The notes beneath the pieces were generated by a model. It ran no database searches, had not been told where the DNA came from, and saw only the letters and a program-made list of their open reading frames with translations. A stretch of 21,122 nt of DNA from Bdellovibrionales bacterium. GTDB lineage: Bacteria; Bdellovibrionota; Bdellovibrionia; Bdellovibrionales; JAMPXM01. Positions 1 through 15,462 of the stretch are shown here, in pieces. Location of the stretch: assembly GCA_043739185.1 (NCBI GenBank), contig JAYUEN010000072.1, positions 1-21,122 on the forward strand, written 5' to 3'. Every line of letters begins with the position of its first letter. Positions within the stretch are counted from its first letter, which is position 1. Both the position numbers and the translations under genes were made by a program.

Positions 1-359
1 ATAGCAAAACCAATAACGCTCAAGAGCTGGTAACTAAGTCCCATGTTTTCTAGAAGAGTAAATGAACCTTTGTAAAAATACTTTAAAGAGCACACCAGCA
101 AAACCTGATAAATAATAAAAAATTTAAGGTGCGGCCTCTTCATTTTAAAAATGAGCGTGCAATCAACCAAGATTTTGACAAAATAAATTAGAAATCCGAT
201 AGGCGAAAGAATATACAATGCCAAGCAAACCAACAAAATTGATAATATCATCTGTCTTGATACTGAAAAACGTTGCTCTATCCAATGGCCTTGTTCATCT
301 GTAAAAACAAATGCAAAAACAATCGAGGCCCCAATGATAAATAGATTAAGAACAGCCAC
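1..359 (-). CDS. Partial CDS (5' part; runs off window start), probable MBOAT family O-acyltransferase (AlgI/DltB-like)
   Basis: Not in the ORF track. Manual translation from GTG at 359 (AAGGA upstream) is open to position 1: VAVLNLFIIGASIVFAFVFT...YQVLLVCSLKYFYKGSFTLLENMGLSYQLLSVIGFA. It has several hydrophobic helices. The KY...GLSYQLLSVIGF segment resembles the MBOAT N-terminal 'KY...LGISFYTFQ.ISY' segment and parallels SYLGLQSIGY of the MBOAT at 5038. The catalytic region lies outside the window. Confidence 0.6.
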   Translation of the reverse strand, partial: MAVLNLFIIGASIVFAFVFTDEQGHWIEQRFSVSRQMILSILLVCLALYILSPIGFLIYFVKILVDCTLIFKMKRPHLKFFIIYQVLLVCSLKYFYKGSFTLLENMGLSYQLLSVIGFA

Positions 360-376
360 TCCATCCTTTAAAATTT

Positions 377-1033
377 TTAATTCTTCTGAACATAGTAAGT
401 GCGATTGATCATCGGGTGCTTCTCATCCGTAGGGCCCCAATCGCTCTCAGGATGATATGCGATAACGACCATACTAGAGTCTAAAGTCTTAAATCGATGC
501 CGTTCATCAGCTTCAATACAGAAAGTGTCTCCTGTATTGAGCATCTGCTCACCCTCATTACTACTCGCAATACCGTGACCTCTCAAGACATATCCCAAGC
601 GGATAGATGGATGGGTGTGAAAGGTCTGATCCGTTTTTGCCGGAAAATAGAGAGCGTTTAGACATGGGTCCCCTATTCGTGGAGGGGAAATAAGTAAGGT
701 GTCTTTGCAGCCGTCAATATAAACAAGCCGTCCTTGACTCTCAACTTCAGCTGCAAACACATTAACCCCGGTAAATTCAAATCTTGTGAAAACAGTAACA
801 CAGCCATCGTCACAGATCACCTCACCCGAATTCAAACTAAATACATTTTGACCTTTAACGTGAAATTGATTCTCTGAATGAATAATCCGCGCAGTGCCGT
901 CGATAACCCCGAAACTCGTAGAGGACTTAGGAACAACATATCTCATCTGAGGTCGAAGCAAGGTCAACTCAGAAGGAAACTGATCTTTGCGAAACTCCAT
1001 TTGAATTTTAGAAACTTGAGTGAATATCTTCAA
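377..1033 (-). CDS. Cupin-domain protein (RmlC-like barrel, metal-binding His motif)
   Basis: 218 aa; TTG start with GAGAGG upstream. C-terminal cupin motifs QTFHTHPSIRLGYVLRGHG and GDTFCIEADERHRF, plus YIDGC..LL.PPR.GDPCLN and AYHPESDWGPTDEKHPMINRT blocks. Confidence 0.8.
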   Translation of the reverse strand: MKIFTQVSKIQMEFRKDQFPSELTLLRPQMRYVVPKSSTSFGVIDGTARIIHSENQFHVKGQNVFSLNSGEVICDDGCVTVFTRFEFTGVNVFAAEVESQGRLVYIDGCKDTLLISPPRIGDPCLNALYFPAKTDQTFHTHPSIRLGYVLRGHGIASSNEGEQMLNTGDTFCIEADERHRFKTLDSSMVVIAYHPESDWGPTDEKHPMINRTYYVQKN

Positions 1034-1159
1034 TCTCAGACCTCTCTCAGATGTTTTTTATATTTTGAATAAAATCGAGGTTAAAGTCTATGTTAATCAA
1101 ATTGAGATGAGGTAAATAAACTGTGCAAAATTCAACGCATCGCAAGGGGCTGGAGCTGA

Positions 1160-1438
1160 TTGCTTTCTTACGACAAATATAAGATGAAAGATCACATGAT
1201 AAAAGATAATTCAGCCGAAGAATTACCAGCTTTTTTGAAGCAGACTTTTCCCGAACTCCATCTTGATCGACCCATTCACCTGCAACTCAGCAGCATCGAT
1301 ATGGTCCATTTAGTTTCTGCGATTGAAAAACACTTCAATATAGAAATCGACCATAAAGACATTAAAAAAGGTTTCCTAAAAGACTTTGAAACGACATTGA
1401 GTGTTTTAAAAGAAAAAAGAAGTAAGCCATCAACTTAG
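1160..1438 (+). CDS. Acyl/peptidyl carrier protein (DltC-like, phosphopantetheine-binding)
   Basis: Small protein with LSSIDMVHLVSAIEKHFNIEI, which matches the carrier helix II pattern (L-D-S-x-D...L...IE..F.I.I) but with SS instead of DS. TTG start is preceded by GGAG; ATG at 1184 or 1196 are alternative starts. Its 3' end overlaps the adenylation-enzyme gene. Confidence 0.75.
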   Translation: MLSYDKYKMKDHMIKDNSAEELPAFLKQTFPELHLDRPIHLQLSSIDMVHLVSAIEKHFNIEIDHKDIKKGFLKDFETTLSVLKEKRSKPST

Positions 1439-2974
1439 CTCATTGATGACTATTAGATTTCCTTGATCAAATGATTTGAGATTTTGAAATTTCGCCCGAA
1501 AGCTGTGTCGGGTCGGTTTTCCGCTGGGAGTCCGAGCTTTTGCGTTCGTCAAAAGTACGACTTTAGGCCGAGCATGGCTCGAGAAGTGAATCGTTAAATA
1601 TTCTTTTAGTTCATCAATTTTTTTTTCAATCTGAAAATCGGGATCGACTTCTAAGACTAAACCAATATCTTCTCCATAAATTTCAGATTCGAACCCCACT
1701 GAAATTACATCCTTTTGACCAATATTGAGGTTCAACAATTGGTCGTCTACTTCTTTAAGCGAAACTGTAACTCCATTACGTTTTATTATATCCTTTTTAC
1801 GTCCAGAAATATAAAAATATTGGACAGAATCAATTTCTCTAAAATACCCAAGGTCGCCAGTACAAAAGAAGTCTTTGTAGAATGAGCTCCTTTGCTGATC
1901 GTCTCTGTAGTGCTTCATAACAGAGCTTCCCCGAATACATATTTGACCAATCTGATTTTCGGAGCATGCATTAAATTGATCATCAAAGACCCTCACCTCG
2001 TTATCAAAAAGTGCTTTCCCGGCGCAAGTATTGGTTTGATCAACAGCAATCTTCCAATATTTATCTTCATCCTGTAAAACTGATATTGGCATAGTTAATG
2101 AGAAATTGACAATTTCTGACAAGCCATAACCTTGAATAATTTTCTTTCCAAAAGTATTGCTAAATAGTTTCATGAGCTCGGGTGAAAGGTAGGACGCAGC
2201 CGAAACAAAATATTTGACACTTCTAAAATCACTAGAGTCGATCCATTTAGAACTTCGGCATAAAATATTTATCAATGTTGGCACTACGCTGACAATGGTT
2301 GCAGATTCTTTTGCAATGACTTCAGTGAAGCTCGAAAATTCAAATCTTTCAAAAAGAATCAATTTGCACCCACTGACAAATGAAGACAGGAATGAGAAAA
2401 AGAGACAATTCACATGAAAAATCGGAAGCGACGTTGCGATTGTTTCCTGACCTCCCAGATGGTGATGATCGACAACAGCCTGAATATTCGAGTTGATATT
2501 ATCATAACTCAGACAAACGACTTTACTATATCCCGTACTCCCACTTGTAAAAACCTGAATTGCTGTTTCGCCCGGATAAGGCGCTGGATTCAAAATTGAG
2601 TTGTGAGCTCTTACTTGCTGATTCATCTTTTGGCTACAAAGAGCATTATCTAAAACAACTGAATCCGAGCTCAGTTTACTCAATTTCTGCTTTTGTTGGT
2701 TTGGATGATCCTCTGGGCTAATAAGCGTGAGGGTTTTGCCCGACTTAAGAGCCGAAAGTATTTGAACCAAATGAACATAATTATTTCCGTTAATCGTAAC
2801 TAAATTTTTCGATTGAAGTGTCACAAAATAGCTTGAAAGACTAAAAACATCTTTCTCAAACTCGAAATATGTTTTTTGAATCTGTTGGCCATCGGCCATC
2901 CTCAACAGAACAAAATCTTTTCGAGAAAAATTTTTGAATGAATTTTCTATTTTAAGAAAAAGCGCATTCTCCAA
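1430..2974 (-). CDS. Class I adenylate-forming enzyme (acyl-CoA/acyl-ACP synthetase, AMP-binding)
   Basis: Motifs VFTSGSTGYSK (P-loop), LPIFHVN, QGYGLSE, FCTGDLG, SGRKKDIIKRNG and RTPSGK. TTG start with AAGGAAG upstream. Confidence 0.92.
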   Translation of the reverse strand: MENALFLKIENSFKNFSRKDFVLLRMADGQQIQKTYFEFEKDVFSLSSYFVTLQSKNLVTINGNNYVHLVQILSALKSGKTLTLISPEDHPNQQKQKLSKLSSDSVVLDNALCSQKMNQQVRAHNSILNPAPYPGETAIQVFTSGSTGYSKVVCLSYDNINSNIQAVVDHHHLGGQETIATSLPIFHVNCLFFSFLSSFVSGCKLILFERFEFSSFTEVIAKESATIVSVVPTLINILCRSSKWIDSSDFRSVKYFVSAASYLSPELMKLFSNTFGKKIIQGYGLSEIVNFSLTMPISVLQDEDKYWKIAVDQTNTCAGKALFDNEVRVFDDQFNACSENQIGQICIRGSSVMKHYRDDQQRSSFYKDFFCTGDLGYFREIDSVQYFYISGRKKDIIKRNGVTVSLKEVDDQLLNLNIGQKDVISVGFESEIYGEDIGLVLEVDPDFQIEKKIDELKEYLTIHFSSHARPKVVLLTNAKARTPSGKPTRHSFRAKFQNLKSFDQGNLIVINELS

Positions 2975-2990
2975 AATTAAAACTTCCTTT

Positions 2991-4721
2991 CTATAAAATC
3001 TCTAAAGAGAAGTATTGACCCGTAATCCTTTTGACGTCCCTTTTAAACCCTAACTTCAAAAAAATATCGACCATGAGTTTATTTTTTTCAGTAGGAAGAT
3101 ATTCGAGATCAAGGCAGCTAACTTTTAATTTAGATAGAATTTCAAGCGCAGAGTTTAGAATAATGCTCTCTGCATTTCTTCCGAACGCTCGGCAACTTAA
3201 AACCCAGGACTCAATGAAGGCCTCTGGGTTTTCACCAAAACTGTTATGTCGAATAATAATGCTCGAAATGAGACCTAGATCCCCCAGACGATCTTTCATC
3301 CTTAGGCTGAGACAAATAAAATGAGAGTCTTTAGAAATATTCTCTAGCCAAGCAAGAGTAGTCGGCTTTTTATTCAGATTGAACTGATTCGTTTTATTTA
3401 TGAGTTGGTTAACTCTGGCGAGATCATCTTGCGTGAACCTCTTAACTTCGGCCTCAATTTTTAAGTCTTTCAGATAGTCTTCGTAAGAATAGGATGCCGC
3501 CAAGGCTTCGTCTCGCAAAATATCCGCGCGCTTCATTTGGTTACGATTGTCGTCTTCCGAAGTAGTGAAGTTTGTATCAAAAAATCCGGTAGTCTCGATA
3601 GTCTCCGAAAATTGGCTCACTTCGCTAGGCAGTTCAGGCACAACCATATTTTTAAAAGCAAACCTAATTTGCTCACGCTCAAAAGGATTATCATCGACGA
3701 AAGCAACCAAGGACGAATCAAGATTTAGCTTCAGCAAAATACGTTGAACTTTCTGTGACTTTGGACTCCAGTCACATTCAATCACGGCAAAATCAGAAAG
3801 CTTTAATTTCATATTTGTATTCAGCTTAAAGACTTCTTCAACATTTGATAGTTCATTTTGACTACAAATACAGAGTAAAATACCCCGAGACTTCAAACTC
3901 AGGAGGTAGTCTTGAAAGCGAGAGAATTCTTGGCCGGGCGGCCTTTCGTCAGTTAGGTGAATATCTTGCCAGCCTAAGTCACCCAGCTCGCCTCCCCACA
4001 GAACATTATCAAGATCCAATATGACGGCTCGGGCATTCAAACCAAAAAAGGATGCAATTTGACTGACAAGTTTTTTTGCCAAAATGCACTGATTGTCTAG
4101 GGTGGTAATACATTTTGTAAGTTCAAAAAACCTCTCATCATTCCATTTATCTTTGCCTATCTGACGCGAAAGCGCTTCAACGTCTAATAGCTTGGCAGAT
4201 AGAGGTAGTCTCGCACTTAACTCGCGATTAAAATGAGCAATTGCCTCTTGATCTTGAGCACTTTGCGAATCGAGTGCCGCCAAATTATTAAAAATAACAT
4301 CAGCAGAATATTGGTCCCGTATCTTTTTAGCCATTGTTAGCCAGACGTTCAATTCGTCGGAAAGGTTTTCAAGTGAAACAAATTTACCTCCACCACAATA
4401 GTAAAAAAAATCAGGCCTCTTCATTTGCTCAGATTTGAAATCAGATAAAATTCTACTCTTGAAAACTTCATATGGCCAAACTTCAAGATTGAATACGATT
4501 CTGCGAGAAAGACCAATGACTTGAATGATAGGAGCAAGAAAATCAACATTATATCCGCCACCTAAAACCAAATTTACATGTGAAAAGCCTTTCGCCTGCA
4601 ATAATTGGGAATTATTTTGCTTGGTAGATTTAAGGATTTTCAAAAGCTCTTCGTATCTCAAGTGATTAAAAAAAACGCGAGCGAGATTTGATATGATGTC
4701 ATTCGAATCTATTTTTTGCAT
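2991..4721 (-). CDS. fkbH: FkbH-family protein (HAD-IIIC phosphatase plus acyltransferase domain; glyceryl-ACP loader)
   Basis: HAD motif ILDLDNVLWGG, ICSQN, FVDDNPFER, RVNQLINKTNQFNL, DRLGDLGLI and WVLSCRAFGR (transfer Cys). The start overlaps the stop of the upstream ACP gene. Confidence 0.93.
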   Translation of the reverse strand: MQKIDSNDIISNLARVFFNHLRYEELLKILKSTKQNNSQLLQAKGFSHVNLVLGGGYNVDFLAPIIQVIGLSRRIVFNLEVWPYEVFKSRILSDFKSEQMKRPDFFYYCGGGKFVSLENLSDELNVWLTMAKKIRDQYSADVIFNNLAALDSQSAQDQEAIAHFNRELSARLPLSAKLLDVEALSRQIGKDKWNDERFFELTKCITTLDNQCILAKKLVSQIASFFGLNARAVILDLDNVLWGGELGDLGWQDIHLTDERPPGQEFSRFQDYLLSLKSRGILLCICSQNELSNVEEVFKLNTNMKLKLSDFAVIECDWSPKSQKVQRILLKLNLDSSLVAFVDDNPFEREQIRFAFKNMVVPELPSEVSQFSETIETTGFFDTNFTTSEDDNRNQMKRADILRDEALAASYSYEDYLKDLKIEAEVKRFTQDDLARVNQLINKTNQFNLNKKPTTLAWLENISKDSHFICLSLRMKDRLGDLGLISSIIIRHNSFGENPEAFIESWVLSCRAFGRNAESIILNSALEILSKLKVSCLDLEYLPTEKNKLMVDIFLKLGFKRDVKRITGQYFSLEIL

Positions 4722-4954
4722 TTTTTGGCAATCATTTCATATAATTTCTGAACAGACTCAATGTCATTTATTTCAGGAATTGAAAAAAGCACTTCAAATT
4801 CAGACTCGAGTGCAACGATGATTCGAATGTGGGTGATTGAATCCCATCCGTAAACATCCGAAGCTTTCAAATCTTTCGTGATTTCTGGCAAATCGACTCC
4901 AAGGATGGTTTCAATTATTTTATTTGCTCTCTTTTGAACTTCATCTAAAGTCAC
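4709..4954 (-). CDS. Acyl carrier protein (FkbH-associated type)
   Basis: 81 aa, acidic, GTG start. DVYGWDSITHIRIIVALESEF carries the WDS phosphopantetheine site typical of FkbH-linked ACPs. 13-nt overlap with the fkbH start. Confidence 0.92.
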   Translation of the reverse strand: MTLDEVQKRANKIIETILGVDLPEITKDLKASDVYGWDSITHIRIIVALESEFEVLFSIPEINDIESVQKLYEMIAKKCKK

Positions 4955-4988
4955 GTTTGTCTTTCGGCGTCGAATTTAGCAAGGGCTC

Positions 4989-5015
4989 ATTATATTTAAA
5001 GAACTTAAATTTCAA
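4989..5015 (-). promoter_or_regulatory. Possible sigma70 promoter for the ACP-fkbH-ligase operon
   Basis: Minus-strand TTGAAA (5015-5010) and perfect TATAAT (4994-4989) in the 83-nt divergent gap. The spacer is only 15 nt, so this is tentative. Confidence 0.35.
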
Positions 5016-5037
5016 TTTATGGTAACCTCGAGTTCTG

Positions 5038-6288
5038 ATGAAAAACAAGTGGCGTTCATGCCTCATCATTATTATTAATTTTGCTTTCTTAGCCTTTTAT
5101 TTCTCAAGTGGCGCACTCCTGACAATTGGTCTATTGAACCTAAATTTCTTAGGAGTTTGGTATGCATCGAAACGACGCCCCACCGTTCGAAATATTCTTG
5201 CCGTTTTACTCATTTTAACAAATGTCGCTTTTTTACTGACGAAAAAGTTTGACGCAATTGGAGACTACGTTAAGCCTATTTTTTGGAGTTACTTAGGTCT
5301 TCAGTCAATTGGCTATGTTGTTGACGTTTTATTTTTTGAAAAGGAGTGCTTAAGCTACATTGATTTTACCAAAACCAGTGTTTTTTTTGCTAATATTGTC
5401 TCGGGACCTATCGAAAATCTTCATCTTTTAAGTCAAAAATTGAAAAGGGGTTCTTTAGATGCCCCCCTTTGGACTGCTGCCATTGGACTCTTAATTAACG
5501 GCCTATTTAAGAAGATTTTGGCAGACCGAATTGTCGACGTATTGGCGGTGATCAATTTTAATGACAAGGGTTCAACTAGTTCAGTCCTCGTCATTCTACT
5601 CACATCGGCCAGACTCTACTGCGATTTTAGCGGCTACACAGACATCGCACGGGGATCGGCAAAAATAGTTGGTGTCGATCTCGTTCCAAATTTCAATTTG
5701 CCGTACCTTTCAAAATCATTAACTGAATTCTGGACCAAATGGCACATGAGCTTGGGCATGTGGTTTAAAAACTATATTTTTGTTCCTCTGAATACTTCTA
5801 TTTTGAGAAAAATGAAAAACTATCCTAGCTCAATCTATTTAAGTAGCACGATAAGTGTACTCTCGGTTTTTTTATTGATAGGTATTTGGCATTCTTTTTC
5901 AGTTAATTTTATCTTTTGGGGGATCGCTAACGCTACGATTATTTTAATCGAGCATATACCCGGCATTGCCAAGTTAGCTCTTCCCCGTTTCTTTATGTGG
6001 TTAAGAACCATTCTGGTTGTATTAGCCTTACAGTTTCTGGTTCACTCTGGAGTCTCGGTCAATAATTATGTTAGAACATTCAAATCAATATTTGTAATCG
6101 CGGGCGCCCCTTCGTATACTCTGTCTGCCTGGGTCCTGAGTTTTCTCTTTTTAATTGTTCCTCATTTTTTCGATTTCATCTTGATTCGTTCTAAAGAAAA
6201 AGAGAACTTCTTTTTATGGACGGTTCAGGCCTATCTCATATTTCTTATGCAAAGCTCGCCGCGATCTTTTATCTACGGAGCTTTTTAA
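5038..6288 (+). CDS. MBOAT family O-acyltransferase (AlgI/DltB/PatA-like) with C-terminal acyl-shuttle motif
   Basis: SGPI, GLFKKILAD, LYCDFSGYTDIARG, NFNLPYLSKSLTEFWTKWHMSLGMWFKNYIF and the catalytic LIGIWH. The protein ends ...SFIYGAF-stop. Confidence 0.93.
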   Translation: MKNKWRSCLIIIINFAFLAFYFSSGALLTIGLLNLNFLGVWYASKRRPTVRNILAVLLILTNVAFLLTKKFDAIGDYVKPIFWSYLGLQSIGYVVDVLFFEKECLSYIDFTKTSVFFANIVSGPIENLHLLSQKLKRGSLDAPLWTAAIGLLINGLFKKILADRIVDVLAVINFNDKGSTSSVLVILLTSARLYCDFSGYTDIARGSAKIVGVDLVPNFNLPYLSKSLTEFWTKWHMSLGMWFKNYIFVPLNTSILRKMKNYPSSIYLSSTISVLSVFLLIGIWHSFSVNFIFWGIANATIILIEHIPGIAKLALPRFFMWLRTILVVLALQFLVHSGVSVNNYVRTFKSIFVIAGAPSYTLSAWVLSFLFLIVPHFFDFILIRSKEKENFFLWTVQAYLIFLMQSSPRSFIYGAF

Positions 6289-6289
6289 T

Positions 6290-7378
6290 ATGAGACTCAT
6301 TTACGCTCTTATTTTAATAACCGTATTTACAATATTTTGCGCGCGTATGACGAGACCGCTATTACTCACGCTTGCAAGCCGATATTCAACCAGCTCACAC
6401 AACCGCAAACGAGTAGTCGAGTTTCAAAAATTTGAAAAACAAATTTTTAGTTCAAGTACTGCGCCAAGTTTTATTTTTGGGGCCTCAAGTGTTGAGGGCT
6501 TTATGGATTCAAGAATTCTCGATCAAAAATTCAAACAACATCAAGTCGATGTCGCTTTTTACAATATGGGATTTCCAATGTTGTCCTACTACGAGTTATC
6601 GCTTCTTGCAGAAGGCATTCAAGAAAAATTAAGCCAGACGAATAAAAAAGCAGAATTAAGTCTCATTCGTCTCGAACCAGCGCTGCTAACAAAAACTTTT
6701 TTTTACGGACTGAAAACGCGAGAAAGTAAATTTGATTTTGAAAGACTCATTCACTTGTCGACAGCAAGTTTAGGTCAAAAATTTGTATCCTCAATTGAAA
6801 ACTGGATTTACGGAACCGGCGGACAAGACGATTTTACTTTTTGGCTCTCTGATCTTTTTTTTAGCCGACAGAATAACAATTCAAAGATTCACTATGCTCC
6901 CTGGATTTTTTGGCAGTTTCAAGAAGAACCAGAATGGAATTACGAAAAACGCGGCAACACCGATTTTAACAAAACACAAAGCTATGAGCTCTTTGAGTCT
7001 ATCATGAAACAAAAGTCCTCGCCCGAATTAGAAGGTTTTGCTTGGTCTGAAATAACAAAGAGATTTGGTGCCAATCAATTTGATTTCGAAGAAACACTTG
7101 TAAAAGGCGCAATTGAAGACATTAAAAGCATTTCAAAATTTTCAAAAAAAACGATCGTATTCTTTTATCCAGACCGCGGCTCGGAACAGAACTTAACCGA
7201 ACAGGCCAAAAAGAATTTGCAGACATTATTTGAGCGTATTCAAACGCCAAACAATGCGACCCTTGTTATCGTTGAAGCTCAAAAACTTGAACATCGTGAC
7301 TATTATGACCCTACTCATTTATCTCCAAGTGGTTGGAATAAGGTTAGTGACATTTTAGTCGAAGCAGCATTGAAATAA
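6290..7378 (+). CDS. Membrane-anchored SGNH-fold acyltransferase (DltD/AlgJ/PatB-like)
   Basis: N-terminal hydrophobic anchor, block I FIFGASS, FYNMG, and C-terminal YYDPTHLSPSGW (DxxH). It starts 1 nt after the MBOAT stop. Confidence 0.75.
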   Translation: MRLIYALILITVFTIFCARMTRPLLLTLASRYSTSSHNRKRVVEFQKFEKQIFSSSTAPSFIFGASSVEGFMDSRILDQKFKQHQVDVAFYNMGFPMLSYYELSLLAEGIQEKLSQTNKKAELSLIRLEPALLTKTFFYGLKTRESKFDFERLIHLSTASLGQKFVSSIENWIYGTGGQDDFTFWLSDLFFSRQNNNSKIHYAPWIFWQFQEEPEWNYEKRGNTDFNKTQSYELFESIMKQKSSPELEGFAWSEITKRFGANQFDFEETLVKGAIEDIKSISKFSKKTIVFFYPDRGSEQNLTEQAKKNLQTLFERIQTPNNATLVIVEAQKLEHRDYYDPTHLSPSGWNKVSDILVEAALK

Positions 7379-7394
7379 ATAGAGGCGGCAAAAC

Positions 7395-9125
7395 TTGATT
7401 TCTGAATCGAAATTTTTTAAGAAAATAAATTGGCTCGAAGCCTCGGTCAAAATTCTAGGGATTCTCTCGATTCTTTCATTGAGCATGAATGTCTTTATTC
7501 ATTTTTTCCCTCTGGATTTGAAGCTGGGACATGATGAGGCAGAACATTTACGTGTCATATTTGGTTTTGATAAGGGTCTGTTTCCTTTTAAAAATTATTT
7601 AGAAAATCACCCCATTCTTCCTCATATAGTGGCTTACTACATTAAAAATCTATTTGAGATTCAATCCGTGATCTCGCTTTATTACCTCCTCAAATTTATT
7701 GTTTTTTTACATTTTTTTGGTTGTGTCCTGCTGATTGGAAGATTTTTGAATGTTTTCCGCGAGGACCTCGGAATAGAAATACCTGTTTCATGGGCCATAC
7801 TTGTTGCTCTCGGATTCTTATCTGTCTGGGATTTGGGAAAAGACTGGATTTGGGGGCTTTCATCGATATGGATGATCCGACCTGACTGGCCGGCAAACTT
7901 CTACGTACTTTTGGCCTTCTACCTACATTTCAAGACCCTAAAAAAAGTCGAGGAAGACCCATTTAAAGGCAAGTTTGTCGCGTTCTTAAGTGGAGCCTCA
8001 CTCGCTTTGTCTGTCATTATTTTACCAAAATTTGTTTTCTTGGGAGTTCCGTATGTTTTAAGTTTTGTCGCCATGAGCGCCTCTTCGGTATCCGTTTGGC
8101 GCGAAAAGTTGCGCTCCCACATTAATAAGTATATTTACGCGCATCTCTGGATATTAATGGGTTTCTTAGCAATATTTATTCCCGGAATAGCTTTTGAGTT
8201 AAATTTCTTGAATGTTTCACTTTTAGATTACTTCAACTACGTTTACCAGTTGAATGTGCTTAAGCACGTACTCATGATTAATATAGGCGATGATTACAAT
8301 CCATGGAACATCTTAAGATCAATCATGGGCGTAGCCCTCTTGCCATTTAGCATTTTATTCGCATTCTATTTTGGACTTCTATCTTACCTTTCTCGCTATA
8401 AACCTGGCAGCCTCGAGCTCGGCGCTTTAATGATGTGCGGATTTATTTTGGCATTCAATATGCTCATTCCGGCATTTGCGAATGGCCTCATTTTTCCATG
8501 GTATTTTACCTACAGTATTGTGTCTCTTATCGCGCTCATAGTACTTTTCACAAATCGCATTTACAAACTCAGGTCCCCTGTTATCAAACTTTTAATAGGT
8601 ATTCTAATTTGCTTTCAAGTCGTTAAAAAATTTGGTGAGGCCGCACATAACTTCAAAGAGAGTCCTCAAGCCGTTTGTTTAATGAATTTAGACAGTTCAT
8701 GTTTTGGCCATTTACTTCATGAGCCAGAATTCCCCGAAAATGTCGTTTATTTTTCAATTTTTTTAGACAAAGTTCCAGTGAAAGCACGCTTAGCAAATTA
8801 TTATAGTCTGGGACCAAATTTGTTTCGTCTCTGGGTGGACGGAGCCGCTTTAAAGCTAGGACCCGATCCCGAAACTAACTTCAAGAAAATATTTGAATTA
8901 GACCCCCCTACGGCGGTTGTCGCTGACGATTTTGATGATTTTAGAAATTTAATAGGCCGAATTTCTCACGTTCAAAAAATAAATTTAAACTGGCTCAATG
9001 AAGTTGTGCGACGTAATTACATCTGTCACACAAAGAATTCGCAACGCCTTCTTCTCTTAGCTTCTAAGACATCTCAATTTGCAGAATTAGGCTGGGTCCC
9101 ATGTTTACCTAGTACGCTGAAATAG
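7395..9125 (+). CDS. Polytopic membrane protein, probable GT-C glycosyltransferase (ArnT/PMT-like)
   Basis: About 10 or more hydrophobic segments. The first external loop has HDEAEH followed by FP.KNYLENHP.L, then IRPD, and there is a soluble C-terminal domain. TTG start with GAGG upstream. Confidence 0.65.
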   Translation: MISESKFFKKINWLEASVKILGILSILSLSMNVFIHFFPLDLKLGHDEAEHLRVIFGFDKGLFPFKNYLENHPILPHIVAYYIKNLFEIQSVISLYYLLKFIVFLHFFGCVLLIGRFLNVFREDLGIEIPVSWAILVALGFLSVWDLGKDWIWGLSSIWMIRPDWPANFYVLLAFYLHFKTLKKVEEDPFKGKFVAFLSGASLALSVIILPKFVFLGVPYVLSFVAMSASSVSVWREKLRSHINKYIYAHLWILMGFLAIFIPGIAFELNFLNVSLLDYFNYVYQLNVLKHVLMINIGDDYNPWNILRSIMGVALLPFSILFAFYFGLLSYLSRYKPGSLELGALMMCGFILAFNMLIPAFANGLIFPWYFTYSIVSLIALIVLFTNRIYKLRSPVIKLLIGILICFQVVKKFGEAAHNFKESPQAVCLMNLDSSCFGHLLHEPEFPENVVYFSIFLDKVPVKARLANYYSLGPNLFRLWVDGAALKLGPDPETNFKKIFELDPPTAVVADDFDDFRNLIGRISHVQKINLNWLNEVVRRNYICHTKNSQRLLLLASKTSQFAELGWVPCLPSTLK

Positions 9126-9518
9126 ATTTCGATCACCGCGACTGGCCAAGATACCAAGACAAGCTTTATCTGAAAGGACAATTTTGACATGCGGATATTT
9201 CTGTCTACAAAGGACAATCAATTTTCTGAGGCCGATCGAATGAGATGCACTTTGTGTCTTTATTGTGTTCGATTGATGGTCTCGGTCGTGGATAAAACTT
9301 GAAGAAATGCCCACAAAGATAGTTTGAGAAGAAACATATTTATTTAGTAGCTGTTCAATTTCTTCGTCGGTGAAATCCGATAAACAGTCTATCACCTTAA
9401 CAGTGTTTGCATCGCTTCGAAGCAGATTAGCAAATCGATAAGCCCCAACTGAACGACTCCAAACTGGACCCGAGACATCAGTAATAATGAGGGCGTCATA
9501 GATCGCGGATTGAATCAT
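9105..9518 (-). pseudogene. Truncated N-terminal (cobalamin-binding-type) fragment of a B12-dependent radical SAM protein
   Basis: ATG at 9518 with GGAG upstream. RSVGAYRFANLLR..NTVKVID, TIFVGISSSF and KYPHVKIVL match the N-terminal domain of B12-radical SAM enzymes. The sequence diverges where IVxGG is expected (about 9172), has no CxxxCxxC, and runs into the convergent gene. Confidence 0.6.
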
Positions 9519-10929
9519 GATCGACTCCGGATCTCTCTTCTTCTTGATAATCATAATCGCAGTTGACAGCCCACAGGTCTAGGTCTGCACCTTGGACATT
9601 TTTGGCTGCCATCAGGCCCATTAAAATACTATGATCTTGATTATTATATTTAAATGCACCTCCGCGCCCAATGACTGCAAGCCCAGAAATTTTCTGTAAG
9701 TAATCTTGCAAAAGTTTTAGATTTTCTCGAAAGCCAGTCCTGTAAATAGGATAACATCTTGGAATTCTCACAACATGGCCTTTCAATATTTTTTCTTTGG
9801 TACACAGACCACATTTTATAAACTCGTCCTGAGCATTTTTAATGAGATCCTCGTCTGAGGCTCCCCAGATCTTATCCTCTTTGAAACACCAGTATTCAAG
9901 CGATACAATGCTTGTCTTCTCTTTGCCGAAAAGCGATCTGGACCAGTTTCGATAGTTGGTTATTCTACCCGTTTGTAAATTAGAGGAGTGAATATAGAGC
10001 CACTGATCAGGAAACAGCGAGGTCTCGTCAATCAAAAGGTAAACCAAAATCGTATTACGAAATTGAAGTTGCTCACTCGATTTTTGAACATCCTTTGGTA
10101 CGTCTTGCATTCCCTTAATAAGTAAATTCAGTGGCATGGTTGAAATGACATGATCTGCCTCGATCAGAGTACCGTCTACAAGGCCAACACCCGTCACCTC
10201 TGATTTATTCTGTATAAGTTGCTTCACTCTTGCATCAAAAAGTATTTGGCCTCCACTTTGAGTAATATGTTGAGCGAGTTTTTGATAGAAAGCACCGGTC
10301 CCGCCAGTCGAATAACGAAACGAATCAACTAGAGACTTATGAGTTGTTTGAGAACTGATTTGAATTGCATTTTTCACCGCTTCAAAAAACGAAAGCCTTC
10401 TTATTCTCTGCCGTGCAAAATCAGCGTCCAAATTTTGACATGAAATTCCCCAAAGTTTTTCTGAATATGATTTGAAAAAAAAATGATAGAGTCTTCTTCC
10501 AAATCGATTGATTACCCAGCCCTCAAAATGACTCTCATCTTTTTCGGGCCAGAGTTTCACAGAAAGATAACTGCCAATGCAGAAAATACTTTCTAGAATG
10601 CCAAGATTCCAAAGGACATTTCCAATCTTGAGGGGATAATAAAAAAATTTGTTATTATAAAAAATGCGGGTCAGCCGAGAGACATCTTCAAAATCCTTTT
10701 GTGCAACCCCAAGCCAAAACGCATTTATTTCAGGATCTGCACTAAAGAAGCGATGCGGCCCCAAATCCACAAGACAGTTCCAAAGAGGAATGGTTTTAGA
10801 CATTCCGCCTACTTCACTCCCGGCCTCAACAACACAAACGTCGAAACTCCCGGCTTGCGTGAGTTGATAGGCGGCTGTTAGACCTGCTGGACCGGCGCCA
10901 ATGACGACGACCTTTTTCTTTTGATTCAT
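9496..10929 (-). CDS. FAD-dependent oxidoreductase of the UDP-galactopyranose mutase/protoporphyrinogen oxidase-like superfamily
   Basis: VVVIGAGPAGLTAA dinucleotide fold, VGGMSKT, DLGPHRFFS, YSEKLWG, RCYPIY and C-terminal GRGGAFKYNNQDHSILMG. Confidence 0.85.
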   Translation of the reverse strand: MNQKKKVVVIGAGPAGLTAAYQLTQAGSFDVCVVEAGSEVGGMSKTIPLWNCLVDLGPHRFFSADPEINAFWLGVAQKDFEDVSRLTRIFYNNKFFYYPLKIGNVLWNLGILESIFCIGSYLSVKLWPEKDESHFEGWVINRFGRRLYHFFFKSYSEKLWGISCQNLDADFARQRIRRLSFFEAVKNAIQISSQTTHKSLVDSFRYSTGGTGAFYQKLAQHITQSGGQILFDARVKQLIQNKSEVTGVGLVDGTLIEADHVISTMPLNLLIKGMQDVPKDVQKSSEQLQFRNTILVYLLIDETSLFPDQWLYIHSSNLQTGRITNYRNWSRSLFGKEKTSIVSLEYWCFKEDKIWGASDEDLIKNAQDEFIKCGLCTKEKILKGHVVRIPRCYPIYRTGFRENLKLLQDYLQKISGLAVIGRGGAFKYNNQDHSILMGLMAAKNVQGADLDLWAVNCDYDYQEEERSGVDHDSIRDL

Positions 10930-10987
10930 ATTTAAATCATGTTTCAGCGTCTTCTTGACTGCAACTGAATTGCGTTTTTAACAAAAA

Positions 10988-11008
10988 TTGACATTAAATA
11001 AATGTCAA
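10988..11008. promoter_or_regulatory. Perfect inverted repeat TTGACATT-N5-AATGTCAA; candidate operator or paired -35 boxes
   Basis: Seen directly in the divergent gap between the FAD oxidoreductase and the cytochrome P460 gene. It places TTGACA on both strands. Confidence 0.5.
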
Positions 11009-11123
11009 AATCAATCGAGTGGAATAAAAAACTCATAAAAATAAAATTCAAATCTAGGATTTTATAGCTTATGCTACCACTGGCTCAATCCTATAAGTTC
11101 GTTTTTCTAGCGGAGTCGTTACG

Positions 11124-12005
11124 ATGAGACTATTTTATTTCTTTGCAATGAGCGTCTTGATTTCGATTCAGGCGGGTGCCTATTTCGATATTCAGAGCAA
11201 AAAAGACCTCACACATGAAATGAACGGGATCGATTTTCTAAAATATAAAGACTTCGTGAAAAAATGGCATTTGGTTACGGTTCGTTATCGAAAAGATTCA
11301 AATGAAATGCGCTTTGTCTACGCCAATGATTTAGCTTGGAATTCAATGAACAAACTGAAGCCCCATTATCCTGAAGGCGCCGTTTTCGCTAAAATAGGCC
11401 TGACCTCTGAAGTTGACCCCGTATTTCCAAGTTCTGTTGTTCCTTCTGGAGCAAAGAGGTACCAATTCATGGTAAAAGACTCTGCTAAATATAAAGAAAG
11501 TGACGGCTGGGGTTACGCACTGTTTACGGGCAACGGAAAAATTTTTGATGAGGCCCTGAAGCCGAACATGATGGCTTGTGTCGCCTGTCACCGGATTGTT
11601 CCTACCCGAGATTTTGTTTTTTCACGTCAGGCTTCTCTGGATTTCAATTCCATCAATCCTGACAATAAATCAGAACTTCTTGAAAGAAAACTGAGCTTCA
11701 CAGTTTTAAATCGAAATGACATCCCAAAAAAAATGGACGAACTATTGCCGAAAGATACTAAGAATATCGACAGTCTTGATGGCCCCCTCAAGAAATTCGC
11801 ATTTTCAGGAACACTTGATGAAGTCATTCCACTCCTAATCGAACAAACTAAGTTAAACCAGCGGCCCAGTGCTCTTATTGCGAATTCCGAGACATTTTCT
11901 TTAGTCAGACCAAACGACGGCACTTGTCATCCACCCAGTGCCTCTTATCTTATTTCGGTTTATCTTAATGGGGCCCCGGTACGAAGCACAGAAGTTTGTC
12001 AGTAA
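11124..12005 (+). CDS. Cytochrome P460 family c-type cytochrome with C-terminal extension
   Basis: Signal peptide (..IQAGA), KWHLV, EMRFVYAN, YPEGAVFAK, MVKDSAKY, GWGYALF, CVACH and DFVFS are collinear with the P460/c'-beta fold. GGAG RBS. About 125 extra C-terminal residues. Confidence 0.85.
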   Translation: MRLFYFFAMSVLISIQAGAYFDIQSKKDLTHEMNGIDFLKYKDFVKKWHLVTVRYRKDSNEMRFVYANDLAWNSMNKLKPHYPEGAVFAKIGLTSEVDPVFPSSVVPSGAKRYQFMVKDSAKYKESDGWGYALFTGNGKIFDEALKPNMMACVACHRIVPTRDFVFSRQASLDFNSINPDNKSELLERKLSFTVLNRNDIPKKMDELLPKDTKNIDSLDGPLKKFAFSGTLDEVIPLLIEQTKLNQRPSALIANSETFSLVRPNDGTCHPPSASYLISVYLNGAPVRSTEVCQ

Positions 12006-12985
12006 AGAGCTGAATACTTCGGATAGTCTCGAAATACTTGTTCAAGACCTGTCTCCAAATCATATTTAAATTTAAATCCGAGATCAAGAAGACGAGTTGG
12101 ATCGCCACAGCGGTACTGCACACCTGAAGGAAGCTGAGTTTGCGCCTTTACCTCGCAAGATTTCTTAGCGTGTTTCAAATAAATCTGAGCAACCTCAATA
12201 AAACTTGTCGGAACTCCCATTCCTAAGTTCAAAACTTCGCCGTTCGACGTTTTCTCTTTGGTGAAATAAACCGCCTCTATCACATCGTCAATATGAATGA
12301 AGTCGCGTACTTGTTGTCCGGTACCCCAAATAAGAAAGGGCTCTCCACTTTTAATTTGATGAGCCTGTCGACAGAGATTCGTGACTGGGTACCTTAAACT
12401 CTGATCAACCCCATAGCCCGAGAACGGGCGAAAGATACGAGTCTGAGTCTGTGTACGTCCAATGAAAAAATGAGTTAAGACCTCGAGATTGAGCTTTCCC
12501 CATCCGTAAGTCATATCTGGAAAACCGCTCAAATTCTTAGGATTCAAATCCGACTCTGCCAAACTTCTTTTCGAGCTGAATTCCTGCAAATGAGTAGGAT
12601 AGACAGCGCTTGAAGAAAAAAGCATAACTTCAGCAACAGGATTTTTAAGTGCCCACCTAAAAAACCGCAAATCAATTTCTAAGTTCTGGGCAATTTCGAA
12701 AGGATCATTTTCAATCGTCAGTCGACCGCCAACGATGCTTGCTAGGTGAATGGCCATATCAAATTTCGTCGTATTAGATTCAAAAAATTGGCGACAGTCT
12801 TGCTCGACAAGCTCGAAATCATGAGAGCTAATTTTTTCGATTTGAAACCAAGTGGTTTCAGGTCTCAGGCCTCCGCCAGTTTCAGAGAAGTTGTCGACAA
12901 CAGTGACTTCATCTCCCGCCGATAAACATCTCTTTAAAAAATTTCGGCCCACAAAACCAAGACCGCCGGTAATGAGAACCTTCAT
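11999..12985 (-). CDS. NAD-dependent epimerase/dehydratase (extended SDR, NDP-sugar modifying)
   Basis: MKVLITGGLGFVG, HLAS, FSSSAVYP, YGWGK (YxxxK) and WGTGQQVRDFIHIDD. The true start is probably ATG 12985, overlapping the upstream stop (ATGA), not 13012. Confidence 0.9.
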   Translation of the reverse strand: MKVLITGGLGFVGRNFLKRCLSAGDEVTVVDNFSETGGGLRPETTWFQIEKISSHDFELVEQDCRQFFESNTTKFDMAIHLASIVGGRLTIENDPFEIAQNLEIDLRFFRWALKNPVAEVMLFSSSAVYPTHLQEFSSKRSLAESDLNPKNLSGFPDMTYGWGKLNLEVLTHFFIGRTQTQTRIFRPFSGYGVDQSLRYPVTNLCRQAHQIKSGEPFLIWGTGQQVRDFIHIDDVIEAVYFTKEKTSNGEVLNLGMGVPTSFIEVAQIYLKHAKKSCEVKAQTQLPSGVQYRCGDPTRLLDLGFKFKYDLETGLEQVFRDYPKYSALY

Positions 12986-13908
12986 TGAACCATTAACTTT
13001 CGATAACGGCAAAATGCCTTAAACGAACGTGCCGGCAAAAATGTTTTAAGAGCCTTCTCAGGATTTTTTCGAACCTGAGTCGCGAATGCGAGGTTACTCT
13101 GGTAGCCTAAAAGTTCGTTTTTGAGGTCGACCACTAGGTTGTGTTTATTTCGGACCTGCACAACACTAGGTTTATCAAAACGAAGCTTGAATCCTATTGA
13201 TTGGACATAATAAGCCGCCCAAATATCGTCAAACCTTCCCACATGAGGAAACATAAAATAGTGTGGCAGAACATTTTTCGAAACAAATGTATTCTGGCTA
13301 TTAAACGGAGTTAGCGCATGACTGGAAAACGATTTAGTTTGAGAAGAGAATTTACAATCAGGTCTGAAGGCGATTCTACAAACCGCATCGACATCAGGAT
13401 CTCCATTCCAAAGATCTGCCTTAATGTCAAACTTATCATGCCGAAGGCTTTCTTTGAGATTAAGGTTCTTCTCAGGCAAAAGCTCGATCGGAAATCCACG
13501 ATGCCATAAATTCGAGTGCTCTGTTACCGAAAGAGGATCAAAACAGATCGACTTCGTTTTAAAGTCTCTTGTCACGACTTCTTTATCGAAATCGACTCCC
13601 TTTCCCCAATGTGGCATCGGGATATTGTCATCATCGACTGTCGCAATGATGTCGGCCCCTAAATTTCGGGCCAGCAAAAAACCAAAATTTCGGCGTTGTA
13701 TGCAGTTCCATCCGATCAAATCCGACAATTTTTTGTCGATTTTCTCTTGATCACGAGGTGAAACGTAGAGTCCATTCTTGAGCTTGAAGTTAGCAGGGGT
13801 CTTTTGATCGCCAATGACAATCAAAGACCAATCTTTGATTCGATCAAACATTCGTAAAGCTTTTGTAGGAGCATTTATCGAGGTCGTAACAATAATTTTA
13901 ACAGACAT
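12982..13908 (-). CDS. RGP/UDP-arabinopyranose mutase- or STELLO (DUF288)-like GT75-type protein
   Basis: IVTTSINAPT, VIGDQKTP, RRNFGFL, TVDDDN, HRGFP, LWNGDPDVDA, PFNSQNT and GRFDDIW parallel plant RGP/STELLO motifs. Confidence 0.78.
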   Translation of the reverse strand: MSVKIIVTTSINAPTKALRMFDRIKDWSLIVIGDQKTPANFKLKNGLYVSPRDQEKIDKKLSDLIGWNCIQRRNFGFLLARNLGADIIATVDDDNIPMPHWGKGVDFDKEVVTRDFKTKSICFDPLSVTEHSNLWHRGFPIELLPEKNLNLKESLRHDKFDIKADLWNGDPDVDAVCRIAFRPDCKFSSQTKSFSSHALTPFNSQNTFVSKNVLPHYFMFPHVGRFDDIWAAYYVQSIGFKLRFDKPSVVQVRNKHNLVVDLKNELLGYQSNLAFATQVRKNPEKALKTFLPARSFKAFCRYRKLMVQ

Positions 13909-14636
13909 CGGTAAAATCTAGATCCAGACAACAAAAGATGCAAATAAGAAAGGTTGTTCTTCCATTCTTTTTTCGATGATCCTTCTGATCTCTTGGTCCA
14001 GGACCCAGGAACCTCAATGACAGGATAGCGATTTTGCAATGGAATGAGCAGGGCCTCAAGCAGGATCGCATGGTTTGTTTGCGAAAACTGCATTTGCTTG
14101 AGTTCAGAGGTCGGATAAATACGGTAACCAAAAGTTAAATCACTCAGGGAAGTCCTAAAAATCACACGTCCAAGCAGTTGAAATAAGAAATTGGCAACTC
14201 GATTCATAAAACCATAGCCTTTAAAAAAAGTACCTTTTTGCCAGCGAGAAACGGTGACAATTGCTTGAGGGTTTGAGGATGAAGCTTTGATCATATCCTT
14301 CACCAAATGAGGATCAGTTTCAAGATCTGAAGCCATTAATATAAAATAAGCTTCTTTACAAAGATTGATACCCTTCTTGAACGCGCCTGCAAGCTTCGCC
14401 TCATCTTGAATCTCACAAAGATAATTCTGATGTTGAAATTGCACTTTCAGATAAGCCAAGATGTCATCACGATTCTTCGAGTTATTCGTAACGACGTAAA
14501 AAAAATGTTCGCTTTGAATTTCTTCTGAAAGAATCCTCATCGTTGCCAAAAGAGAGGTTCGCTCCTCGACGCATGGCAGGAAGATACCATAAGATTTTTG
14601 CGGATCAACTTTCACTTTTTTCCTTTGATGGTTCAC
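13875..14636 (-). CDS. Glycosyltransferase family 2, DPM1/polyprenyl-phosphate glycosyltransferase-like
   Basis: IFLPCVEE, ILMASDLETDP (degenerate DxD), TVSRW, SDLTFGYRIY and IEVPGSWTKRSEGSSK. GTG start; 34-nt overlap with the next gene. Confidence 0.82.
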   Translation of the reverse strand: MNHQRKKVKVDPQKSYGIFLPCVEERTSLLATMRILSEEIQSEHFFYVVTNNSKNRDDILAYLKVQFQHQNYLCEIQDEAKLAGAFKKGINLCKEAYFILMASDLETDPHLVKDMIKASSSNPQAIVTVSRWQKGTFFKGYGFMNRVANFLFQLLGRVIFRTSLSDLTFGYRIYPTSELKQMQFSQTNHAILLEALLIPLQNRYPVIEVPGSWTKRSEGSSKKEWKNNLSYLHLLLSGSRFYRCLLKLLLRPR

Positions 14637-14723
14637 AAAAGAATAAGATCATAGGAAAGCAAAATCAATGTATGTCGGAGACAAGCGCACTGTGCCTAAC
14701 TCATTGCCAGCATTTTCAAGAAA

Positions 14724-15408
14724 ATGACCGCACAAATGAATAGAAAAGAATGGAAACAGTATTTAAAGCCGAGTTTCAGCGCGATGAAATTCGTTCTATT
14801 TTTACTTGTGATAGATTGCCTCGGAATTCATTTTAGGGGAGCCCCTCTGGCAATGTGGGCGAGACATTTCTAAAGCCTCGAGTTGCACCAAAACGCAGTT
14901 CTAGCCTTGTTTGCGATTCAAATAGGCGCGCTTGCCATGATGCTAACCTACCTACTCTCTCTTTTTCTTCAGCTCCTGCAGCCCAAGAAGGAGAATTTTT
15001 TTTCTTTCTCTCTCGATTTACTTATTTCTTTTTCTTGTTCTAAAATCTCCCCAGATTTTTGAAGACTTCGGAATTCAGTTTATCGGCCCAAAGCTTGAAA
15101 TCTCAGAGCGTTTTCAATTGCTGAGTGTTTTGAGTCTAGTAGCTTTTGTTCTCACCAATTTGCATTTTTGGAGTCAACTCAAAAACAATACTTTGAAAAG
15201 CGTGTGCATTAACGACTGGTACCTCGACAATGCTTATGTGAACAGACGAAAACATGGCGTTTGGCAAAAAGATTTGGATCTCGATAAATGTGACTATATT
15301 TGCCTCGACGACACGGCTTCTATGCTAACCGAAGAGAATTTCTTAAAGATCTTCATTAATTTTGAATTGGTCAGTTATCGAATTTACAAAAACAAAAATA
15401 GGATTTAG
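14724..15408 (+). pseudogene. Disrupted membrane-protein gene (in-frame stop plus +1 frameshift)
   Basis: ATG 14724 opens MTAQMNRKEW...FVLFLLVIDCLGIHF..., with TAA at 14871-14873. The same frame continues hydrophobic (AVLALFAIQIGALAMMLTYLLSLFLQLLQPKKEN). Removing one T from the T8 run at 14996-15003 joins it to FFLSLSIYLFLFLVLKSPQIFEDFG..., which is continuous with ORF 15118-15408. Confidence 0.55.
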
Positions 15409-15462
15409 AGATCTCTAAAATGAATACACCTTTGTTCATTTGTAGGTTAATGTTTATAAAGA

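Follow-up and report, generated by a model that had tools for sequence, protein, structure and literature searches.

A probable pair of carrier-fed acylation modules beside MBOAT and SGNH exporter genes in a Bdellovibrionales bacterium

To our knowledge, carrier-fed export of acyl groups to the cell surface has been worked out so far only for D-alanine in Gram-positive bacteria. Membrane-bound O-acyltransferases (MBOATs) that act with SGNH partners are defined, in the available text of PMC12148441, by a relay that runs from a histidine of the MBOAT to the tyrosine of a C-terminal FXYXXF motif and then to a serine of the SGNH protein. MBOAT/SGNH pathways other than that of DltB lack a carrier protein according to the same partial text, and in the available text of PMC10213974 all MBOATs except DltB use acyl-coenzyme A (acyl-CoA). 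FkbH enzymes convert 1,3-bisphosphoglycerate to glyceryl-S-ACP, in which the glyceryl group is bound to an acyl carrier protein (ACP), as described in the accessible part of PMC7489565. Here we describe a stretch of 21,122 nucleotides (contig JAYUEN010000072.1, hereafter the window) from a sediment Bdellovibrionales bacterium, kin of the predator Bdellovibrio, in which genes for an FkbH-type loader, an adenylating ligase and two ACPs lie among MBOAT and SGNH genes. On balance, it seems probable that the window holds two carrier-fed acylation modules placed side by side within a surface-biosynthesis island, which also contains a family 2 glycosyltransferase (GT2), an epimerase and polytopic membrane proteins.

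The window is the entire contig C72 of the host genome (G000; 4.85 Mb in 540 contigs, completeness 97.65%, contamination 3.73%), and the list of open reading frames (ORFs) used to read it began at 60 aa. Positions 1-9125 carry, in order, a fragment of a second MBOAT (MBOAT2, minus strand), a cupin gene (minus), ACP2 (plus), the ligase gene (minus), fkbH (minus), ACP1 (minus), MBOAT1 (plus), SGNH1 (plus) and a membrane protein gene (plus), separated by successive gaps of 17, 126, -9, 16, -13, 83, 1 and 16 bp. A preliminary description of this DNA had named the FkbH, two ACPs, a ligase, an MBOAT and a DltD-like SGNH gene, all of which were found where it had placed them; the cupin gene, which is part of the ligase module, was absent from it. 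ACP1, fkbH and the ligase gene form one tight minus-strand run (gaps of -13 and 16 bp), and a divergent gap of 83 bp (4955..5037) separates the loader genes from the exporter genes. Promoter-like sites in the window (22, as against 20.3 in shuffled sequence) show no excess, and a terminator scan also stayed at shuffle level. Public contigs that match with no difference span 626-3633, 4214-5389, 6047-7338 and 7312-9445, that is, most of the junctions; they come from one study, possibly from the source sample itself. For the left end of the contig, no other contig carries its end words and the public runs gave no usable extension.

The FkbH-type gene (2991..4721, minus strand) scores 237.5 bits on TIGR01686 (cut-off 146.65), and residues D236, D238, K321, D343, D344 and C510 are invariant among 13 aligned sequences; the C-terminal cysteine of the FkbH family has a catalytic role. 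ACP1 (4709..4954, minus strand; PF00550 31.5 bits, cut-off 20.8) overlaps the start of fkbH by 13 bp and has a predicted phosphopantetheine attachment site at Ser39 (codon 4838-4840). The ACPs fall into two classes, named WDS for that of ACP1 and short for that of ACP2, and carriers of the WDS class accompany FkbH and MBOAT/SGNH loci. A single-protein scan of the genome contigs with FkbH gave no relative, and two phosphopantetheinyl transferase genes are present in the genome. FkbH occurs in 23 of the 384 genomes of the order; within the fetched stretches of the 23 FkbH loci other than the window, an ACP is found at 18 and an MBOAT at 12.

Across the divergent gap, MBOAT1 (5038..6288, plus strand) exceeds the PF03062 cut-off with 45.6 bits and combines a predicted catalytic His285 with a fused C-terminal acyl-shuttle hexapeptide, FIYGAF, that contains Tyr413. 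Its sister is the FkbH-adjacent MBOAT of another genome, G124 (support 95/89 in a first tree and 100 in a second tree of 31 rows, each of at least 380 aa and with a terminal Tyr), which likewise lies in divergent orientation to FkbH, a reductase fusion and an ACP of the WDS type, a layout as in the window. SGNH1 (6290..7378, plus strand) would be a membrane-anchored acyltransferase of the DltD fold, with one hydrophobic segment at its N-terminus and a predicted Ser66-Asp340-His343 triad. In an alignment of 52 homologues (52 of 55 matches, three longer ones being excluded) H343 does not vary, and conservation reaches at least 90% at G64, S66, N92 and D340. The predicted model (pLDDT 91.9) retrieves DltD chains at Foldseek ranks 1 to 8 and aligns with DltD 7dxm at Z 13.0 over 256 residues (root-mean-square deviation, rmsd, 5.2), a score with which GDSL esterases tie (Z 13.4 over 167 residues). 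SGNH1 has no SGNH Pfam match, and its sole Pfam match over cut-off, DNA_pol3_delta (22.7 bits), was set aside as spurious given the fold and triad. Its two best homologues are the two SGNH genes of G124; no branch of the SGNH tree is strongly supported. In a further homologue, P0169, the SGNH part follows the C-terminal domain of an adenylation enzyme and a carrier domain in one fused protein. Judged by alignment and motif, all residues of the relay are present. Following SGNH1 by 16 bp and probably co-transcribed with it is a gene for a 576-aa polytopic membrane protein (7395..9125, plus strand; about 9 hydrophobic segments), a candidate maker or modifier of the acceptor that presumably resembles GT-C glycosyltransferases; it had no family match and no PDB match, and one homologue besides itself.

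There is good reason to think that FkbH, ACP1, MBOAT1 and SGNH1 are wired together as a first channel. By analogy with studied relatives, FkbH would convert 1,3-bisphosphoglycerate to glyceryl-S-ACP1 at Ser39, and MBOAT1, onto which the ACP would dock, would carry the acyl group across the inner membrane by passing it from His285 to Tyr413 of its own tail. Ser66 of SGNH1 would then pass the group on as an ester to a hydroxyl in the periplasm or on the surface, the acceptor being most likely a glycan that the island produces. At several FkbH/MBOAT loci a MaoC dehydratase and a reductase are added, which would point to a lactyl group; three MaoC-containing queries gave 0 matches in the host genome, and glyceryl is therefore the default product of this channel. 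The glyceroyl group that had been proposed earlier thus appears the likeliest product, and we lean slightly towards glyceroyl as the final group transferred. The accompanying proposal, that loading chemistry of the polyketide type is tied here to MBOAT/SGNH export, appears well founded in gene identities, catalytic residues and recurrence.

The same combination recurs as a one-channel cassette on plasmids of Sinorhizobium meliloti, including strain 1021 (NC_003078.1:631205-636239), where FkbH and an ACP with WDSL accompany an MBOAT that carries FLYQGF and a partner of 409 aa; of 43 records that match, 39 span 80% or more of the cassette. The partner gives no score with the SGNH1 profile or Pfam and is SGNH-like by its GGS and DPGH motifs only; given these motifs, its annotation as a TonB-dependent receptor is probably wrong. 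On the megaplasmid (L306:5855-11740) the cassette adjoins an lsr operon, an arrangement conserved in 1021.

These loci bear on another explanation, that FkbH and the ACPs supply a polyketide synthase (PKS) or nonribosomal peptide synthetase (NRPS) elsewhere, the MBOATs being ordinary acetyltransferases or enzymes of small-molecule tailoring as in aeruginosin-type clusters. The host genome does have 2 condensation-domain and 14 ketosynthase (KS) matches, and the suomilide and varlaxin clusters hold FkbH and MBOAT (PMC10143770, in the text available). All of these matches lie on other contigs, however, with no KS or condensation domain on C72, as had been said beforehand of the absence of an adjacent PKS or NRPS, and the synthases concerned have their own carrier domains and some their own ligases. 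The four-gene cassette of S. meliloti stands alone, with no PKS annotated within 10 kb, and a copy of part of the window on contig C385 (see below) runs on into an SGNH gene and a hypothetical gene, not a PKS. In the cyanobacterial aeruginosin clusters FkbH is a domain of an NRPS module and not a free gene beside SGNH, according to the same partial source. We therefore give this explanation very little credence. Modular PKS and PKS-NRPS fragments are found on contigs C398, C258, C492, C108, C44, C49 and C20.

The second loader gene (1430..2974, minus strand; PF00501 145.4 bits) encodes an adenylating ligase of the ANL family. It belongs to a distinct group, of some 66 proteins, that is enriched in Bdellovibrionota and found in 19 of the 384 genomes of the order; the window ligase is the only member in the host genome. 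Residues N189, N290, K486 and R489 are invariant in all 66 rows. The best NCBIfam matches are acyl-CoA ligases, the amino-acid adenylation model scores 101 bits against a cut-off of 317, and no DltA model is among the matches listed (best 25 of 92), whereas DltA-like ligases elsewhere reach scores of 198-251 with the DltA model. Amino-acid ligases bind the amino group through an aspartate, which is missing from the pocket of the window ligase. The nearest solved relatives are oxalate- and 4-coumarate-CoA ligases; in oxalyl-CoA synthetase, oxalate is specified by Ser289 and His319 (PMC8905533, available portion), positions that hold Ala260 and Asn290 in all 66 rows, and oxalate was rejected as substrate. 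Since both sets of specifying residues are missing, our guess from the pocket residues is that the substrate would be a small polar non-amino acid. Overlapping the ligase gene is ACP2 (1160..1438, plus strand; predicted Ser45, codon 1292-1294), which aligns with the short ACPs found beside this ligase subfamily and keeps their conserved serine; the ACP tree does not place it with its alignment class. The ligase probably loads ACP2.

The cupin gene (377..1033, minus strand; Pfam Cupin_2/AraC_binding), 17 bp upstream of MBOAT2, encodes a bicupin-fold protein with conserved His139, His141 and His179, the model of which aligns with the DUF861 protein 1sfn at Z 18.7 (rmsd 3.0, 195 aligned). Its function is not fixed by structure, as bicupin matches among aminohydrolases, isomerases and dioxygenases fall within about 3 Z units. 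The cupin accompanies the ligase even where MBOATs are missing, in two flagellin glycosylation islands, which suggests that it acts on the substrate of the ligase; a complex prediction for the two proteins (score 0.00) carries no weight either way. Those islands, L119 and L120, lie in flagellar loci of Aliikangiella and a gammaproteobacterium and also hold a DegT aminotransferase, a methyltransferase and a hexapeptide acyltransferase, which may serve to place an uncommon N-acyl sugar on flagellin. The cupin family is also frequent in phages (553 matches). Among the 80 viral loci kept (L014-L093), its neighbours include a WSGGIDST PP-loop family (52 loci), a PAPS-reductase/DUF3440 family (12 loci) and ParB genes, with no acyl genes beside the cupin in any of the 80; a PP-loop gene lies near the cupin of the G124 island as well. 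In the proposed second channel, the ligase would adenylate a small polar carboxylic acid, probably made or tailored by the cupin, and load it on Ser45 of ACP2, whence the group would leave through an MBOAT, most simply the adjacent MBOAT2 with its SGNH partner.

The neighbourhoods of related ligases were compared in classes set by ligase score: 26 top-scoring loci, 39 intermediate loci and 77 low-scoring controls with other ANL ligases, seven fetched loci with no ligase call being dropped. Near the top-scoring ligases an MBOAT is found at 21 of 26 loci (1/77 controls), a cupin at 10 (0/77), an SGNH1-type gene at 7 (0/77) and FkbH, in the loci as fetched, at only one (0/77), while the intermediate loci yielded 4 MBOATs and 9 cupins. 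Restricted to classic MBOATs and to loci of at least 8 kb, the comparison is 6 of 22 with 1 of 46. These counts express linkage and not its strength. As the ligase is found near MBOATs, ACPs and the cupin but mostly away from FkbH, its unit is, by these gene neighbourhoods, a module separate from FkbH, and the two loaders are independent, as had been supposed. Across genomes the ligase occurs with no FkbH in 15 of 19 and FkbH with no ligase in 19 of 23. This independence argues against a serial pathway in which both loaders build one composite acyl group, such as an acylated glycerate, that is exported once. The tight packing of ACP1, fkbH and the ligase gene and the four genomes that hold both loaders (1.1 expected) would suit such a pathway, but the window has no condensing enzyme or acyltransferase for it and two MBOAT/SGNH pairs are present, so that we consider it highly improbable.

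A different doubt concerns ACP2, which would be dispensable if the ligase were an acyl-CoA synthetase whose product the MBOAT takes directly, as PatA or AlgI does, leaving only the first channel carrier-fed. The nearest solved and curated relatives of the ligase are indeed CoA ligases, a ligase and an MBOAT occur together with no ACP in L095, L098, L100, L114, L297 and L298 by six-frame search, and the flagellin islands L119 and L120, where the hexapeptide acyltransferase stands nearby, have the ligase and cupin with neither ACP nor MBOAT. An unpruned six-frame search nevertheless found an ACP at 19 of the 26 top-scoring loci, none of the 77 controls scored an ACP with the same profile, and the short ACP overlaps the 3′ end of the ligase gene in L101, L109, L113 and L115. 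We regard this alternative as improbable.

At the left end, the window holds the N-terminal 119 aa of MBOAT2 (1..359, ORF 3-359, minus strand), cut by the contig end. Alone, this ORF has no family match, and BLAST against MBOAT1 gave nothing; over its 119 aa it shares 67% identity with a full-length MBOAT (443 aa) on contig C385 of the same genome, which bears out the earlier surmise of a second MBOAT. The C385 protein exceeds the PF03062 cut-off (28.7 bits), carries GMWH (His299) and ends in FSYGRI, a variant of FXYXXF with Ile as last residue, in a region that lies beyond the truncated window gene. On C385 the cupin gene is followed by MBOAT2, then by SGNH2 and then by a hypothetical gene, and SGNH2, the second SGNH gene that had been sought, is homologous to SGNH1 (hhalign P 99.5, E 3e-22). 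Another contig, C171, bears fragments of fkbH, ACP1 and MBOAT1, and the DNA of both contigs is about 74% identical to the window; they may represent a paralogous copy or a co-binned relative. In G002, a genome of the same genus, a contig has at one end the 3′ part of MBOAT2 and SGNH2, whose proteins share 63-65% identity with those of C385, and it also has homologues of two other window genes. In runs X1 and X2, window positions 288-359 are matched with three differences by a contig whose flanks are unlike the window and which is also unlike C385; this is the third form in which the 5′ end of MBOAT2 occurs in these samples. MBOAT2 forms a long branch with no supported place in trees.

The MBOATs of ligase loci comprise three groups, two of which, M1 and M2, are divergent from classic MBOATs (hhalign E 9e-14 and 3e-11) and have no Tyr tail. 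With neither Tyr shuttle nor SGNH, M1 might transfer its acyl group straight to a lipid or a secreted protein. In L109, L113, L115 and on contig C471 of the host genome (C471:1-7521) it occurs with a short ACP, next to a gene for an HTTM-like membrane protein and prepilin-like genes. M2 (L102, L105, L112, L165, L166, L108) clusters with the ligase, FabF-like and KS-like genes, an ACP and a short-chain dehydrogenase/reductase in Bacteriovorax-type genomes, often beside an NMT1/SsuA-type ABC transporter. These groups raise the alternative of cross-wiring, in which the tail-less MBOAT of C471 serves as the exit for the ligase, cupin and ACP2, or these share MBOAT1 and SGNH1, while MBOAT2 and SGNH2 use another donor such as acetyl-CoA. 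C471 matches L109, L113 and L115 gene for gene except for their cupin and ligase, so that the window ligase, sole member of its family in the genome, may serve C471 in trans. M1 and the ligase occur together in 10 of 12 M1 genomes (3 of 5 among non-seed genomes), and SGNH1-type genes adjoin a ligase with no FkbH in L095, L096, L136, L162 and L103. Yet the adjacency of cupin and MBOAT2 is kept on C385 and that of cupin and MBOAT also in L095, L114 and L298, the short ACP of G124 lies beside a classic MBOAT/SGNH pair, and C471 has a short ACP of its own, leaving ACP2 free for MBOAT2. Cross-wiring is thus judged unlikely.

Several observations nonetheless weigh against the reading of two carrier-fed modules. 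The short ACP class sits mostly with the ligase, the cupin and M1; the M1 spot on C471, as noted, has a short ACP with no ligase; and the full MBOAT2-SGNH2 pair is found only on C385, perhaps from a co-binned relative. Of the 23 genomes with SGNH1-type genes, 11 also hold the ligase and only 5 hold FkbH, and 7 of the 26 ligase loci have no ACP, three of these being MBOAT-bearing and longer than 11 kb. ACP2 scores 17.8 bits on PF00550, below the cut-off of 20.8, FkbH has atypical residues at V240 and Q288 (substitutions T240V and K288Q), 11 of the 23 FkbH loci have no nearby MBOAT, and neither FkbH nor the ligase was found in three genomes of the same genus that are 88-100% complete. The MBOAT, ACP and M1/M2 profiles were also built partly from the loci counted, and kin are non-independent, so that the enrichments given above are overstated. 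The earlier suggestion of one MBOAT per carrier is accordingly not established, with MBOAT2 unplaced in trees and the class of ACP2 travelling with a tail-less MBOAT, and a strict pairing of ACP2 with MBOAT2 is put forward as a tentative idea that is open to real doubt.

The layout with several channels recurs in two other genomes. The G124 island (G124:C23) combines two FkbH-like genes with the same ligase and cupin, two pairs of MBOAT and SGNH genes, tail-less MBOATs and several ACPs. In that of G080 (G080:C131), FkbH and the same ligase are joined by an amino acid:ACP ligase and by five MBOATs and five ACP-like genes. Related MBOAT/SGNH pairs adjoin four other loader types. SGNH1-type loci L286-L289 and L295 carry DltA-like A domains, and pyruvate dehydrogenase (PDH) E1/E2-like genes, candidates for another loader, lie beside MBOAT/SGNH in L291 and L293, with an ACP in L293. 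Amino acid:ACP ligases resembling tRNA synthetases, each next to an ACP and an MBOAT, are found at L106:1675-2829, L164:8080-9222 and L267:10920-12086, a candidate route of envelope aminoacylation. A wider scheme, possible though speculative, would have Bdellovibrionales use MBOAT/SGNH exporters that dock ACPs and accept exchangeable loaders through orthogonal channels with class-specific carriers. The loader set would comprise FkbH (glyceryl), FkbH with dehydratase and reductase (lactyl), PDH-like E1/E2, the tRNA-synthetase-like ligases, DltA-like A domains, and ligase with cupin; the window would be the two-channel case, adding glycerate and a new small acid to one surface polymer, and the ligase would in addition supply a tail-less MBOAT with pilin-like proteins as its direct targets.

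The remainder of the window begins with a 149-aa ORF (9105-9554, minus strand) that has no family match and that we take to resemble the N-terminal remnant of a radical SAM protein of the B12-binding type. Positions 9496-17352 encode a PRK07208-family FAD oxidoreductase, a cytochrome P460 protein, an NDP-sugar epimerase, a 308-aa protein presumably similar to STELLO-type glycosyltransferases, the GT2 and a 629-aa polytopic membrane protein, together perhaps a pathway of lipid-linked sugars by which the acceptor is made. An 802-aa membrane protein (18506-20914, minus strand) has a weak spermidine-synthase match (E 0.005).

If the proposed modules operate as described, carrier-fed export would be a general route for non-acetyl groups onto Gram-negative surfaces, and a candidate origin would be at hand for the glyceroyl esters of bacterial polysaccharides such as gellan. 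A cluster with two carriers and two exporters permits a direct test of carrier choice by MBOATs, and the one-channel cassette of S. meliloti 1021 makes the system open to genetics. No description of such a system was found among the records listed in searches of the open-access literature, and subscription papers and supplements may list such clusters.

Among described systems, the window is like Dlt in its presumed donor, a carrier-protein thioester, in the MBOAT histidine, Tyr hexapeptide and SGNH partner, and in the DltD-like fold of SGNH1. Dlt (DltA, DltC, DltB, DltX and DltD, for D-alanylation of teichoic acid) loads by DltA, whereas the window would load by FkbH and a ligase for a non-amino acid, and has the shuttle fused to the MBOAT as in PatA, two carriers, two exporter pairs and a diderm host. 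With the Tyr motif fused to the MBOAT, a separate DltX microprotein would not be needed. MBOAT1 scores 121.4 bits on the DltB model TIGR04091 (cut-off 375) and is thus not a DltB equivalog, so that the label Dlt-like given earlier holds for mechanism, through relay residues, DltD fold and carrier, and fails for family membership, in the DltB score and the missing DltA-type ligase. The resemblance to PatA/PatB, AlgI/AlgJ/AlgX and WssH/WssI lies in an MBOAT with a fused FXYXXF motif and a separate membrane-anchored SGNH protein (PMC12148441, available text). PatA/PatB-type pathways use acyl-CoA and no carrier in that same text, whereas the window clusters dedicated ACPs and loaders, and SGNH1 is DltD-sized and DltD-like, unlike the SGNH proteins of PatA/PatB-type O-acetyltransferases. 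With the FkbH units of FK520 and tetromadurin (Mad7/Mad8 and Mad14/Mad12; PMC7489565, accessible part) the window shares an FkbH over cut-off and a stand-alone ACP, but in place of their FabH-like tetronate synthase, dehydrogenases, methyltransferase and PKS it has MBOAT and SGNH genes. The ligase, for its part, has oxalyl-CoA synthetase (AAE3/LsOCS) and 4-coumarate-CoA ligase as its best solved relatives and does not keep the oxalate residues of the former. The window would work in the manner of Dlt and is a member of the MBOAT-SGNH class but not of Dlt, and what is new here is the second exporter pair, the module of ligase, cupin and short ACP, and the exchangeable loaders.

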